Position numbers: made by a program. A DNA stretch of 64,000 nt from the IMG/VR virus record IMGVR_UViG_648028025_000010. One strand, written 5' to 3'. Within the stretch, counting starts at the first letter, position 1. Every line of letters begins with the position of its first letter. This document shows, piece after piece, positions 43,601 through 49,600 of the stretch. Origin of the DNA: a virus (Duplodnaviria; Heunggongvirae; Uroviricota; Caudoviricetes).

Positions 43601-46600
43601 AGGTTCAGGTAATTTTTCAGCGTGGGTTATTGAAGCCTGCAGAAGAAGATTAATTAATGAAAAATATTCTCAATTTGTACCCAACAAAGACAAACACGAC
43701 CAGAGCACCTGTTCAGACAGGTTTACTTAAACGACTTATATATGACACAAAAAGCGACCACTAAAGTCGCTTTTTCTTATGGTAACAGGCAATAACTCTC
43801 TCAGATATTTTTTAGCATTTTTTTGACCGCGCGTTTCCGGACGTATTCTGTTCTCCTGTCCCTTTATATCGTCGGAATACCCGCCGCTCTTCAAATCCCA
43901 TTCCCAACTCAGAATGTAGTCTGTTGACCGCTTGTTTTATTTCGGTCAGGTTCACCGGTGAAACCGGAGTCCGGCGCGCCTTACGCAAACACTCTGCTCG
44001 TTTCTGTGCCGCCACTTTTCTTTTCTGGTCATCACTTAGCTGTACCATCACTTTTGCCCATCGTTCAGCTGCTCTCCGGTACAGTCCTTTTTTCTCCAGA
44101 CATTCTGCCACGTGATCATGTAGCATAAGTGACCTCCGATTATCTACAGACTGCCATCCTGAATTTACCTTCCCTTAATGAAATAACAATAAAAAACAAA
44201 CCACGCAAAAACAATAAAACAACACACAAAAAAAACTAAATAATAAACAAAAATAATCACCTTATTTTATTATTTTTTGAGGGAGCAATTACTGAACAAA
44301 AAACGCTGACTATATACTCAAAACCAAACAACTATTCTGCCAATCAGGTATCATGGCAACACACGGAATTACCGTGTTTTTGCCTTCTCTGCCCATACAA
44401 TACGGGCATATACTTCATTCTCTATTGTAATATTTCTATCCATGTGCCCCACTCCATTTACCTGTAAATAATATTCAAAATATTTATCACAGAAATCGTT
44501 TTTGGCCATGAACTGAGCACACTATAAAGTCCGGAACTGACTCTTTGTTAAATTACCTTAACGTTACCAGTAACACCTTCATAACAAAACATCACGGTAT
44601 ACACTGGGTACGGATATATTCCTGTGCTCCTTCCAGTTGCTTCTGCATTGCCATCAGCCGTTCTCTGAGGATGAAATAATCCCGTTCAGCGGCTTCTGCC
44701 AGTCGGGGACCGGTTGCATTATCCACGCCGGAGGTGATGGGGGCTTTACGCAAGGAGCCTGGACAGTTGGCGTTGATGCGCAGGCGCTTACGACCAGCGG
44801 CAACATCAGCACGCAGAGTTTCATTTTCAGCTCTCGCATCGGCTAATTCCCTCGAGTATCTGGCATCAAGTGCAGCGACATCACGCTGGCGTATCTGCAT
44901 ATCAGTAATTGTCGCGTTCGCCAGCTCCAGCTCACTGGCTTTTTTATCGCGCTGCTCTTTGTAGATGATGGCGTGATCACGGTAATGATTCAGCCCCAGA
45001 CTAAGCGCACCACAGGCCACCAGCAGGACAATGATAACCACGCACAGAACACGGTTCATATCACCACCAACGGATTGCCCAGACCAGAACAGCAATGGCC
45101 ACAATACGAATGGCAAAAGCTGCCGCTCTTGTTAAATCCAGACTGGCGTCTCCACTTCAATGCCTTTCATAATGGACAACCTCAGAAAGAATCTTTTATA
45201 CTTCCTCACAGGGAAAGTACCTCCCTACCCATAATTTCTCCCTTGCCTTACTCAAGGTCAGAAAACACAAAACCCCGCTTGCTGCCAACAAACGGGTTTT
45301 TTACTTTTATTCACTTAGGTTTTACCAGTTTTCAGGATTTCGTGTTATCCACCCGCGTTGGCCAACGTCATTTTTCAGGAAAATATTCTGCTATCTGTCG
45401 ATGTCCCAGCACGCCAGCGCGCTCTCCTGGTCACGCCGTGAGACCTGACCGTAGCAATTATTTGAACGGATACGGCAGTCTCTGCCACCGTCCTTAATCC
45501 ACCAGCGAATCGCCTCACAGGCACCTTTTCGATCGCCTGCATTAATTCGTTTATAAAACGTCGACGGGAAGCACTTACCGGGGCCAATGTTGTACGGACA
45601 GAATGACGCGATCCCCGCTTTCTGGGGTTCGGTCAGCGGCACCCGGATGTTTTTCTCCACCCATGCCAGCGCCTTATCACGTTCAATAGCGTTAACCTGG
45701 TCGCATTTTTCCTTCGTCAGTTTCATGCCAGGAATAACAGGCTTACCATCCACCCGGGTGGCTCCACGGCAGATGGTCCAGATACCCGCACCATCACGGT
45801 ATGCCGTGGTGTGGTTACCTTCCTTTTCATCCAGAAACTGGTCGAGGATTTCAGGCGCAGACGCCCCTGCACCAATCAGCGCCAGAACGGCAGCCGACAG
45901 GCCGTATTTGATTTTTGCGTTCATGGATATTTATCAGGATTTATCGGTTCCGAATCCCTGGATATGTTAAGCCTTCACCCCACCAGTGGTGGGCACTGGC
46001 GGGTTCTTAATTTCCCCGGATGATCGTGGATTACATTCCACCAGGAGATTACTTATGCTTATCTATCCAGCGGCAGACCTCCGTTTACAGGGACGCAGAG
46101 CACAACCATGGGATAAAACAACCACTCATAAATATCGTCCCGGTCAATATTATGACTTTCGTAAACACCCGGAACTGATCGAGACACACCTTGAGGATTT
46201 TGTTGAATATTCAGACAGACAAGCGATTCAGACCTTTTTTTCTTTTGTTAAGTGGATCAACAGCAATTCATCTGCATTCGAGAGCACGGACTGCATGTTT
46301 TCAGGAACACCAAAGGTTGATGAATACGCCCCGGTATTTGGTTGCACCCATGCGTCATCTGGCCGCTTCGAATTTTTGTTTCGCGATACGAAAATAAACC
46401 AAAATGAGCGAGCTGTCGGATGGGTACTTAACAAACTATCGCTCTACCTTCAGAAAGAACGGCCCGATTTTTGTAAAGGAACCTTTGGCATCGTTCCCCT
46501 CATGACGGAATATACCGACTCCGGCGGTAACGAGTTCACCGGTTATCGTATTTGTGTCTATTTCGATGCTTACGGGAATGGAACAGAGGATACCTGGACT

Positions 46601-49600
46601 TCTCTCAACATCATGTTTGATGGCCTCATGAAAGCCACCAAAAGAATGAGCAATGAAACAATCACTGGCGAGATGCGTCCCCTTTAAAAAATTATCCAGA
46701 ATCTCACTATTTGCAGAGCGCTCTCTGTTTTTTTGAATACGGAAACACTCTGCGAGATTTCTGCTCATCACTTTCCGGCAATAATCGTAAAACGCCGCGA
46801 ACTGCTCATCACGGCGTTTTTTTTCACCTTCGGAAGGGATCTGCACCGACAGTTTTTTATTCAGTTCAACGACGCTGTTCTCCAGTTTTTCAATGCGTGA
46901 TTCGATATCATCTTTTTCTGACTGTATCGTGTTATATGCATTGTTAATTTGTATGGTATACCGCTCTTCTGAACAGAGGCGCTTTTCCGGCAACGGTTCG
47001 TTCCCTTCACATAACCCGGCAGCAATATCCATGAAAAACTGCTTCGCCTTCTTTTTCGCCTCAGCTTCGTAAAACTCCAGCGGGGCACCTTCAACACGAT
47101 CAAGATCAATCACCACATTTGGCAACAACAGTGACGTATACCCACCAGTTTCCAGCGCCACAGTAACAGTAATCTTATCCGGGTAAATATTTATCCCTTT
47201 AACAACCAGTTCGTATTGTTTATTCATCGTCTACTCTCCCCGCGCCGCCTTACGACGGTCCTCTCTGATTTTGAAATACAGGTTAGTAAGATACGTCAGC
47301 AGGCCAAACAGCAGACTCCCCAGCACACCTATCGCCACCCACTGGGACGGAGAGACTTTGTCCAGCAGCTGCAGTAACCAGTATCCCGTCCCCACCGCTG
47401 ACGTGGTGTATGACACACCTGTTGTGATTTTTTCCATCTGATGTATGTCTCCGTCACCGCCGACAGAAAATGAAAGTAAAGAAAAACAAAAAAACCGCCA
47501 GTGTCACCCACTGACGGCCAACTCCGGGAGCCGTGATTATGGCATTCAGGCTCTGCTAAAAATGCCAGATAACATTCCGGCCTCCCCTGATTCAGGTTAT
47601 AAATGACACAATATCTTGACAACACCCGTCACTGTCTGTCAGAAAATATACCGCTAGGCATAAGTATCATGTGAAATCCAACTATCCTTCTGAGCCAGCA
47701 CCTCTCCACCGAAAGTCAGTGCTGGCTGTTTTTTTCCTTAATAAAGCATCTGTAACTGAAACAATCCGCATATTGATAATATATTGACAGGCATCATTGC
47801 TGTCTGTGAAAAATAAGTCTCTACAAACATATAAGGCCTTTTAGCCAGCGTCTTCTTTCAGGTCAGTCGCTGGCTCTTTTTTTATTATGCTGCCGGTGCA
47901 TTTATCTCCAGCACCAGACTTTCTATCTCAACGCCATACGCTGCATTTTTTGTAACATCCGTCAGCGTCAGCGCATTCAGTCCCAGTGTCAGACTGTCTT
48001 TTATAACCTGGAATGCCGGGCCAGCCACTCCATTCAGTTTCGGAGTAACCGTGGCACTGCCGGCGGTGAACACCAGCTCCAGCGTCTGCCAGTCGTTACC
48101 GTAATCGCCGAACTCCCCCAGCTTCGTGTTTCCGGCTTTCCTGTGATGCATCAGATTCACTCTGCCGTCAGTGGTCTGAGTGAAGTACGACATCAGGAAC
48201 GGATTACCGGTACCCGTCATCGCCACACCATCAGGAACGGGAGCATCCGTATACAGATAAATCCCCAGCCCGAACTGATTGTTGGTCAGTGCGCCTGACA
48301 GGCGGAACTTACAGGTCAGTCTGCCGCCCTGTGTCAGCAGGGTAATTGCGTCATCCACCGGATGCGTCAGGGACCAGGTTTTATTGCTCTGCTTGGTGAT
48401 CTTAAATACACCATCTGACAACTGAATTCCGCCATCCTTAATGCTCCAGCCCTGCGCAGCAGCCTCTCCGGCTGCCGGCAGCAGGGAGATTGTGCGAACG
48501 GACGTATCTGCAGACGGACCCGATGGCGTGTTGCCGCCGGGCGAGGGTTTGATTTCCGGTGCCTTACCACTGATGAAGGCGGAGGTGCGCCCGGCTGCGT
48601 TCAGAATAGCGGTTGCCAGACGATCCGGAATAATGCTCCTGCGCGCCCATGAACTGAAATGTGTCGGGCGGTTTGATGATACCTGGTTTCCATTCGTTCT
48701 CGATGCCGCACCGTAATATCCTGATGCCGGAATATCCGGATCTTCTGCCGGCGCGTTAGTGGCGGTATTGACACCGTTACCGTCTGTCATGAAGGGCACA
48801 AAATAAACGCCCTCACTCTCCCTGTTTTTATACCCGCCGTACACGGTGTCGTACTGGGTAGCGTATGTATTTTTCCAGTAATACGTCGTGTCACCACAAA
48901 TCCACGGCACATCTGCAGCACTGCCACCATGGCACTGCGCGTTAAACACGGAGAGGTCAGCACGAAACTGTGTCAGCATGGCTGTAAACAGCGCAGGTTG
49001 CTGTGCGTGGGTGGCGGCGCTCATGTCAAACTCTCCCTGCATCCAGCACACCGCCAGCAACACATTTTTCGGGTTCTTCTGTAATGCAGCTTTAGTGCGC
49101 GCAATCAGGTCCTGATATAACGGTTTACCCACACCCCAGCGTGCCGAATCCTGGCTGGCCCCCGTGTCCGCACTGAATGTCCCCTCCGCGCCCTGGGTGA
49201 ATGCCGAACCACCACGACAGCATGGTACCAGCAGGATCCCCGCGTTATTCGGGATATACGGGAGCAGTTTTTTGGCAATATGTAAGCCCTGGCCGACACA
49301 GCCGTACTGCCCTTTGCTCAGGTCTGCCTTCGGATGATTCAGCGTACTCATATCCTGCACATCATGCAGGCAGTGGTCGGCCGGAATAATATCGTTATAT
49401 CTGCATGCAGCCCCACCCGGCGTAACTGTACTGCGGCGCGCCAGCTGTTTAATGCGCGGATCCGGAGCATCGTATGAATCCGGCAGCGGAAGCCCTTCAC
49501 CGTAAGCCATGGCATTGGACTGCCCGGCCAGTACGATGACGTAGTACCAATCCGGCTCAGTTGCACCACTGACCACCACATCACCTTCTGCTGTAATCGC

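Follow-up and report, generated by a model that had tools for sequence, protein, structure and literature searches.

The lysis operon of a tailed phage (Caudoviricetes; IMG/VR record IMGVR_UViG_648028025_000010), of which we analyzed a stretch of 64,000 nucleotides (hereafter the window), contains two convergent open reading frames (ORFs) between its holin and endolysin genes. ORF263 (263 codons; 46436-47227, minus strand) begins three nucleotides after the holin stop codon, in the minus-strand context GGAGAG TAG ACG ATG, and ORF210 (210 codons; 46055..46687, plus strand) approaches it from the endolysin side, preceded by its own AGGAG Shine-Dalgarno site (46043..46047, plus strand) seven nucleotides before the ATG. 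Their 3' ends overlap by 252 nucleotides (46436-46687). We consider it highly probable that ORF210 is a moron that was inserted in antisense orientation and truncated a resident gene of the DUF1327 family, and that the overlap is an accident of this insertion. Comparison with related phages and with homologues establishes that resident DNA was replaced, that ORF263 is a fusion, that ORF210 is autonomous and conserved, and that a terminator-like hairpin follows it.

Morons are autonomous promoter-gene-terminator units found between genes that are adjacent in relatives, and examples include gp15 of HK97, bor and lom of lambda, and sodCI of Gifsy-2. In kind, ORF210 is a moron of the classic type, and ORF263 an ordinary gene of the YdfR family that has been damaged. 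A preliminary description of this DNA had correctly recorded the overlap (as about 250 base pairs), the start of the 263-residue gene and the ribosome binding site of ORF210, all of which we recover by direct reading. It had gone on to treat the two ORFs as a unit, and the comparisons described below remove this false lead: they leave neither a novel overlapping gene pair nor a two-gene lysis-operon system.

The window represents a lambdoid prophage of Escherichia coli O26:H11 with its late operon on the minus strand. The region is 100% identical to the chromosome of strain 11368 (NC_013361.1, around 2.196 Mb) and to many further genomes of enterohemorrhagic E. coli (EHEC).

ORF263 is a DUF1327 gene with a replaced 3' end

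The preliminary description stated that neither product matches a known family. This holds for ORF210, for which profile and structure searches returned no family or fold match, but not for ORF263. Residues 1-96 of ORF263 match Pfam DUF1327 (PF07041) with 116.3 bits against a gathering cutoff of 25 (E = 7.5e-34), and phrog_2091 matches at E = 2.4e-85 over residues 1-168. Natural members of this family range from about 114 to 333 residues in length. The intact long forms, of 287, 296 and 325-333 residues (for example P0207, P0248, P0276 and P0282), have the sequence '...RKVMSRNLAECF' / '...FAAFYDYCRKVMSRNLAECF' in common, followed by a conserved C-terminal domain ('SIHNDNFSELEWECNRPSFVV...GRCMGYLQVAAEIEALASGAD...YLKVRI'). 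ORF263 is 98% identical to the intact 287-residue P0207 up to about residue 162-166, but it departs from the long-form sequence after '...NLAECF' (residues 163-166) and lacks the C-terminal domain. Past this point it reads 'RIQKNRERSANSEILDNF' and then the exact antisense translation of ORF210 codons 211 to 128.

The gene can be divided into a native part (residues 1-162; 46742..47227, minus strand), made up of the DUF1327 domain and a helical, coiled-coil-like segment, and a non-native tail (residues 163-263; 46436..46741, minus strand), whose first portion is the terminator and spacer of the inserted cassette and whose remainder is antisense to ORF210. The Prokaryotic Genome Annotation Pipeline (PGAP) of RefSeq independently calls the DUF1327 gene a pseudogene 'missing C-terminus'. 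On these comparisons, ORF263 is to be read as an ordinary lysis-cassette DUF1327 gene whose 3' end has been replaced by an insertion, and its tail is probably meaningless sequence. It shares with the YdfR/DUF1327 genes of Qin-type and Shiga toxin (Stx)-converting prophages a position immediately past the holin stop codon, and differs from their long form in carrying about 100 residues of foreign read-through in place of the conserved domain. A gene of this family lies between the holin gene S and the endolysin gene R in many Stx and lambdoid phages, which contradicts the earlier expectation that the endolysin follows the holin directly. Our survey of the literature on DUF1327 found one incidental mention.

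This arrangement explains an oddity in the annotation of EHEC genomes and Stx phages, in which some records have a 263- or 305-residue 'YdfR family protein' and others a pseudogene next to about 1 kb that lacks annotation. RefSeq PGAP leaves 45925-46978 (about 1,054 nucleotides) unannotated in O26:H11 strain 11368 and in most matching genomes. GenBank records of Stx phages annotate only the fusion ORF on the minus strand, and ORF210 is usually missing from annotations.

Two further observations concern the DUF1327 family itself. The C-terminal domain of the long forms, about 125 residues with the GRCMGYLQVAAEIEALASGAD motif, has no Pfam model. The family is modular, consisting of the DUF1327 domain, a variable helical segment and an optional C-terminal domain.

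Boundaries and spread of the inserted cassette

Breakpoints obtained with blastn place the inserted cassette at 46001..46730 (plus strand), with its right edge at about 46730. The left edge lies at about 46001 relative to PhiR12_1, Stx2-86 and YYZ-2008, in which homology on the left extends to about 46000, and at 45931 relative to Stx2_95. The window is homologous to Stx2_95 over 45300-45930 and again from 46731, and the intervening 45931-46730 stands in place of 398 nucleotides; Stx2_95 itself carries an intact 329-residue DUF1327 form with R 36 nucleotides further on. The junction is likewise empty in YYZ-2008, where R directly follows the DUF1327 gene, and this presence in one phage and absence between adjacent genes in others is as expected for a moron. 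The preliminary description had proposed a moron of about 1.3 kb within the lysis operon. A moron does lie there, in antisense orientation, but as judged from the breakpoints the foreign DNA amounts to no more than about 0.73-0.80 kb, from 46001 or 45931 to 46730. The cassette has a slightly lower G+C content (0.41-0.47) than the flanking holin and endolysin genes (0.52-0.56).

The window, Stx1a phages and Stx2a phages share the block from 45919 to 46788 with 100% identity, whereas its flanks differ by 1-4% among them and the N-termini of the DUF1327 proteins are different. Variation among the 263-residue proteins is confined to residues 1-130. An identical block in such diverged backgrounds suggests that it spread recently among lambdoid prophages through homologous recombination. 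All copies of ORF210 in E. coli, which occur in 132 of 5,426 complete genomes, in 21 IMG/VR contigs and in eight Stx phage records, have one shared context. Just left of the cassette boundary, within a block upstream of R that is common to several phages, there is a near-palindrome, CCACCAGTGGTGG, at 45980-45992.

ORF210 belongs to an uncatalogued protein family

A search with the single ORF210 sequence recovered length-conserved homologues at 53-65% identity, and a profile search added proteins of 205-220 residues at 29-54% identity from Klebsiella, Yersinia, Photorhabdus, Xenorhabdus, Moellerella, Symbiopectobacterium and Pseudomonas. Together these gave 16 full-length homologues with identities of 29-65%, whose hosts also include Salmonella. 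A hidden Markov model of the family searched against 1.84 billion representative sequences matched 251 clusters (defined at 50% identity) at E<=1e-3, nearly all of them single-domain proteins of about 200-220 residues. Of the 12 pairs for which the ratio of nonsynonymous to synonymous substitution rates (dN/dS) over the whole gene could be computed, 11 have a value of 0.05-0.3. Residues R15, W19, Y32, E47-D48-F49, E76, D79, G103-R104, R110, N115 and G163 are invariant in a 20-sequence alignment (A5). Across the 77 members of the more diverse alignment A3 most of these residues are at least 90% conserved, and no column is strictly invariant. By the evidence of homologues, dN/dS and the structure model, ORF210 is a genuine protein-coding gene, predicted to encode a soluble alpha/beta protein.

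The AlphaFold2 (AF2) model of ORF210 is confident, with a predicted local distance difference test (pLDDT) score of 83.8 and a predicted template modeling (pTM) score of 0.83. The N-terminal 30 residues, which hold the motifs RxxPW and YY(N/D)F, are of low confidence and are followed by a helix-backed, four-stranded antiparallel sheet. We found no family model in Pfam, PHROGs, NCBIfam or PADLOC that matches ORF210 or the 77 diverse members. Specifically, PADLOC-DB v2.0.0 returned nothing for ORF210 or ORF263, and only scattered single matches, all at E>0.007, for the 77 members. A sequence profile search of the PDB with ORF210 returned nothing, and a fold search with its model gave no PDB or viral match. 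Signal peptides, membrane segments and enzyme-family signatures are all absent from ORF210, and databases call it 'hypothetical protein'. The family itself is what is new here: it is uncatalogued, has no recognizable fold relative, holds a conserved antisense position between tail genes I and J of other prophages, and is systematically missing from the RefSeq annotation of EHEC.

The overlap is best explained as a by-product of insertion

The ORF263 frame is codon-aligned with the ORF210 frame, and only TTA, CTA and TCA codons of ORF210 give stops in antisense. Six of these occur in ORF210, none of them past codon 128. When synonymous codons were shuffled within ORF210, an open antisense run of at least 82 codons arose in 5.6% of trials (P about 0.06), and with typical E. 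coli codon usage a run that long arose in about 19%. Among 13 pairs of homologues compared over codons 128-210, dN/dS is 0.07-0.34 in the sense frame versus 0.2-1.1 (mostly 0.45-1.1) in the antisense frame, which has the higher value in 12 of the 13. The overlap, which is compatible with chance, is most simply read as a consequence of a lost native stop codon.

A different account would be a dual-coding, co-evolved convergent pair, forming a defense, toxin-antitoxin (TA) or lysis-timing module with a functional protein on both strands of the overlap. Both frames are indeed open, both ORFs have start signals, and the arrangement has become fixed across about 132 genomes of E. coli. This fixation, however, is clonal, being that of one 100% identical cassette, and no relative of ORF210 outside E. 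coli accompanies a DUF1327 gene, which also separates the unit envisaged in the preliminary description. The tail of ORF263 stands in place of a conserved native domain, has no predicted fold and, where conservation of both ORFs would be expected of a pair, is absent from relatives; the antisense frame of the homologues evolves under relaxed constraint. In other words, we observed neither co-occurrence across lineages nor constraint on both frames, and we regard a functional pair as highly improbable. The converse proposal, that ORF210 is spurious and ORF263 a complete protein with a novel C-terminal domain, would agree with existing records, since ORF210 has no annotation in most RefSeq genomes and the minus-strand ORF is the only one of the two listed for phages in GenBank. 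It is scarcely credible given the length-conserved homologues under purifying selection in unrelated contexts, the confident AF2 model and the PGAP flag of truncation, and the homologues, the 251 clusters and the dN/dS values rule out a spurious ORF210.

Genomic locations of ORF210 relatives

Outside E. coli, none of the loci of this family that we inspected (in Salmonella, Klebsiella, Yersinia and Moellerella, and at 29 diverse IMG/VR loci) has a DUF1327 neighbor. Among prophages of Klebsiella, Yersinia and IMG/VR (L012, L015 and L047-L083), those of Klebsiella and Yersinia and most of the 29 IMG/VR loci carry the gene in antisense orientation between the tail assembly gene I, with which it converges, and the tail-tip gene J, from which it diverges. 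At the IMG/VR loci the homologue of ORF210 typically has J to one side and I, K, L, M and H to the other, and all of these tail genes run opposite to it. In the prophage of the window, the corresponding gap between I and J (about 28100-28345) is empty and measures 245 nucleotides.

Other locations also occur. In a P22-like prophage of Salmonella (L008 9618-11257), the homologue lies antisense just upstream of the holin gene, in the cargo region between Q and holin and about 3 kb from the KwaA and KwaB genes of Kiwa. At a second Salmonella locus, a prophage remnant, its distance to sodC is about 1.8 kb. In Moellerella it resides in a moron zone of the tail module with Ant, Bro and Arc genes and a Panacea-type TA system (SocA/Panacea). 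More distant relatives, with about 30% identity, are stand-alone genes with unrelated neighbors in Heliomicrobium, Myxococcales, other Deltaproteobacteria and metagenome-assembled genomes of Verrucomicrobia, and in Heliomicrobium, Myxococcales and Verrucomicrobia these genes are chromosomal and their neighbors are housekeeping genes; a profile scan of genome contigs gave eight such loci.

Judged by these contexts, ORF210 is an autonomous moron that travels alone and mostly occupies the antisense position between I and J of lambda-like prophages in Enterobacterales. Like other lambdoid morons, it is a single gene with its own ribosome binding site and terminator-like hairpin, is antisense to the late operon, is present or absent between otherwise adjacent genes, has a slightly lower G+C content, and has spread as an identical block. 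It differs from Gp15, Bor, Lom and SodCI in having no described family and no membrane or signal sequence. It also differs from known morons in its insertion, which was not a clean one between two genes but cost a resident gene part of its sequence, and in that no promoter was identified.

Expression signals and a model for the insertion

A terminator-like hairpin (GCAGAGCGCTCTCTGT) followed by a run of seven T residues lies 26 nucleotides past the ORF210 stop codon (46713..46734, plus strand), and the right edge of the cassette falls inside this T-run. The hairpin was found by a pattern scan and represents a putative terminator of the kind expected of a moron. Comparable hairpins with T-runs lie downstream of several family members elsewhere.

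As the comparisons show, a cassette with ORF210 as its one gene lies antisense at the DUF1327-endolysin junction and has replaced the last ~125 codons, which encode the C-terminal domain, of a 287-residue long-form DUF1327 gene. The 263-residue ORF and the 252-nucleotide overlap exist because the native stop was lost and the DUF1327 frame stayed open by chance through the cassette terminator, the spacer and 83 codons antisense to ORF210. In the lysogen, ORF210 may be transcribed from a promoter in the ~130 nucleotides that it shares divergently with R. Its RNA would end at 46734, within the DUF1327 remnant and short of the intact part of that gene and the holin gene. On induction, the Q-modified (Q-antiterminated) late polymerase would read ORF210 in antisense and silence it, and the holin, the truncated DUF1327 product, the endolysin and Rz/Rz1 would still be made. 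The truncated DUF1327 product would probably retain the role of natural short forms (103-183 residues), with the addition of a junk tail. ORF210 itself may be a soluble cytoplasmic protein that benefits the lysogen. Its conserved polar site (R15, W19, E47-D48, E76, D79, R104, R110 and N115) could serve to bind or modify a target, a role suggested by this polar cluster together with the flexible, conserved N-terminal motif.

Several results weigh against parts of this explanation. Three of the four homologues examined (L008, L010 and L011) likewise have no antisense stop within these 83 codons (about 128-210), and in none of them does a gene enter from the other side. Shared leucine and serine positions and codon choice probably account for this openness, although the explanation is incomplete. 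The cassette is invariant within E. coli and thus offers no variation for a direct test of selection on the ORF263 tail. The AF2 model of ORF263, built from a 32-sequence alignment, has pLDDT values of 65-91 in the DUF1327 domain (residues 1-73) and 23-39 at residues 179-263, but the alignment has no depth in the tail and low values there are partly expected. A scan of 45800-47700 revealed no sigma-70 consensus promoter, and the regions upstream of ORF210 relatives have no clear -35/-10 elements in common. Because no promoter consensus was found, we infer expression in the lysogen, which is probable, only from the orientation of the gene. Finally, ORF210 has no defense-family match and no fold relative that would point to a function, and the distant relatives have no conserved neighbor.

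Candidate functions of ORF210

Prophages carry single-gene defense and exclusion proteins such as BstA, SieB, Tin and Old. ORF210 resembles these in being prophage cargo consisting of one gene, in having an orientation that fits expression in the lysogen, and in occasionally lying near Kiwa or a Panacea-type TA system. ORF210 matches PADLOC models neither in sequence nor in fold. We tentatively favor exclusion of, or defense against, other phages as the single most likely role, because of the analogy with other late-operon morons and the occasional proximity to Kiwa and TA genes. It is a somewhat more doubtful proposition that ORF210 founds a family of ~210-residue proteins with a fold not in the PDB that would be conserved, lysogen-expressed single-gene cargo of lambda-like prophages and would constitute a new type of exclusion or defense missed by catalogues and by the RefSeq annotation of EHEC. 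A real and usually unannotated gene, from a family that has no entry in Pfam, PHROGs, NCBIfam or PADLOC and keeps a strikingly conserved antisense position in the tail operons of Enterobacterales prophages, makes a testable candidate for a new prophage-encoded exclusion or defense function. The defense protein GiPD474 of Gifsy-1 is an ATPase-domain protein encoded in the immunity region (PMC12724215) and is unrelated to ORF210.

The main competitor to an exclusion or defense role is a lysogenic-conversion or host-fitness factor serving metabolism, stress or virulence, comparable to sodCI, bor and lom in similar late-operon slots. The Salmonella homologue near sodC, the chromosomal stand-alone relatives with housekeeping neighbors, which suggest a general biochemical activity, and the lack of PADLOC matches all speak for such a factor. 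However, ORF210 has no signal peptide, membrane segment or enzyme-family signature, some of its hosts are non-pathogens or lack type III secretion (Klebsiella), and two of its contexts lie beside defense or TA genes (Kiwa and SocA/Panacea). On balance we think a fitness factor rather unlikely. The preliminary description had also raised modulation of lysis timing. A role in lysis, whether in timing or in regulation of the holin or endolysin, would explain the place of ORF210 in the lysis cassette, and all E. coli copies do lie between the DUF1327 gene and R. Such a role would be most surprising, because the family resides mostly in the tail operon, between I and J or in other moron zones outside lysis cassettes; moreover, ORF210 is antisense to the late transcript and related phages lyse without it.

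The lysis operon and its cargo slot

Late genes on the minus strand of the window follow the order Q antiterminator, tRNAs, nanS-p-type esterase, holin, DUF1327 gene, lysozyme, Rz, terminase, head and tail. The S21-type lysis cassette named in the preliminary description is evident. The holin gene (47231..47437, minus strand) encodes a 68-residue class II pinholin of the S21 type (PF04971, E = 8.8e-33; 'class II holin family protein' in RefSeq). The endolysin gene (45391..45924, minus strand) encodes a phage lysozyme (PF00959, E = 3.2e-25; RefSeq 'lysozyme') with an N-terminal hydrophobic segment resembling a signal-anchor-release (SAR) sequence, a character judged by eye from the sequence only. 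The Rz spanin gene (44592..45059, minus strand; RefSeq 'lysis protein') contains an embedded ORF (44654-44839, minus strand) for a 61-residue Rz1 lipoprotein with the lipobox-like sequence LVVSAC. The gap between the endolysin and Rz genes (45060-45390) holds only a frameshifted remnant according to PGAP, and closely related Stx1a phages have an intact antirepressor gene (ant) there. Between the esterase and holin genes, a strong terminator-like hairpin of 11 base pairs with a T-run lies on the strand of the late operon (47493-47519, minus strand).

The junction between the DUF1327 and endolysin genes carries other inserts in related phages. PhiR12_1 has an 86-residue antisense gene (L004 2238-2498) whose 3' end overlaps the DUF1327 ORF by about 50 nucleotides, and Stx2-86 has gp06, an antisense gene of 104 residues (L086 2317-2631). 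Neither protein has a Pfam match at E<=0.01, and the label 'DUF1823 containing protein' that the depositor gave to the PhiR12_1 protein was not reproduced at this threshold. Both genes occupy the same slot as ORF210, are likewise antisense and convergent with the DUF1327 gene, and encode hypothetical proteins, but they are much shorter and unrelated to it in sequence. The DUF1327-endolysin junction is thus a small cargo hotspot in Stx-type phages.

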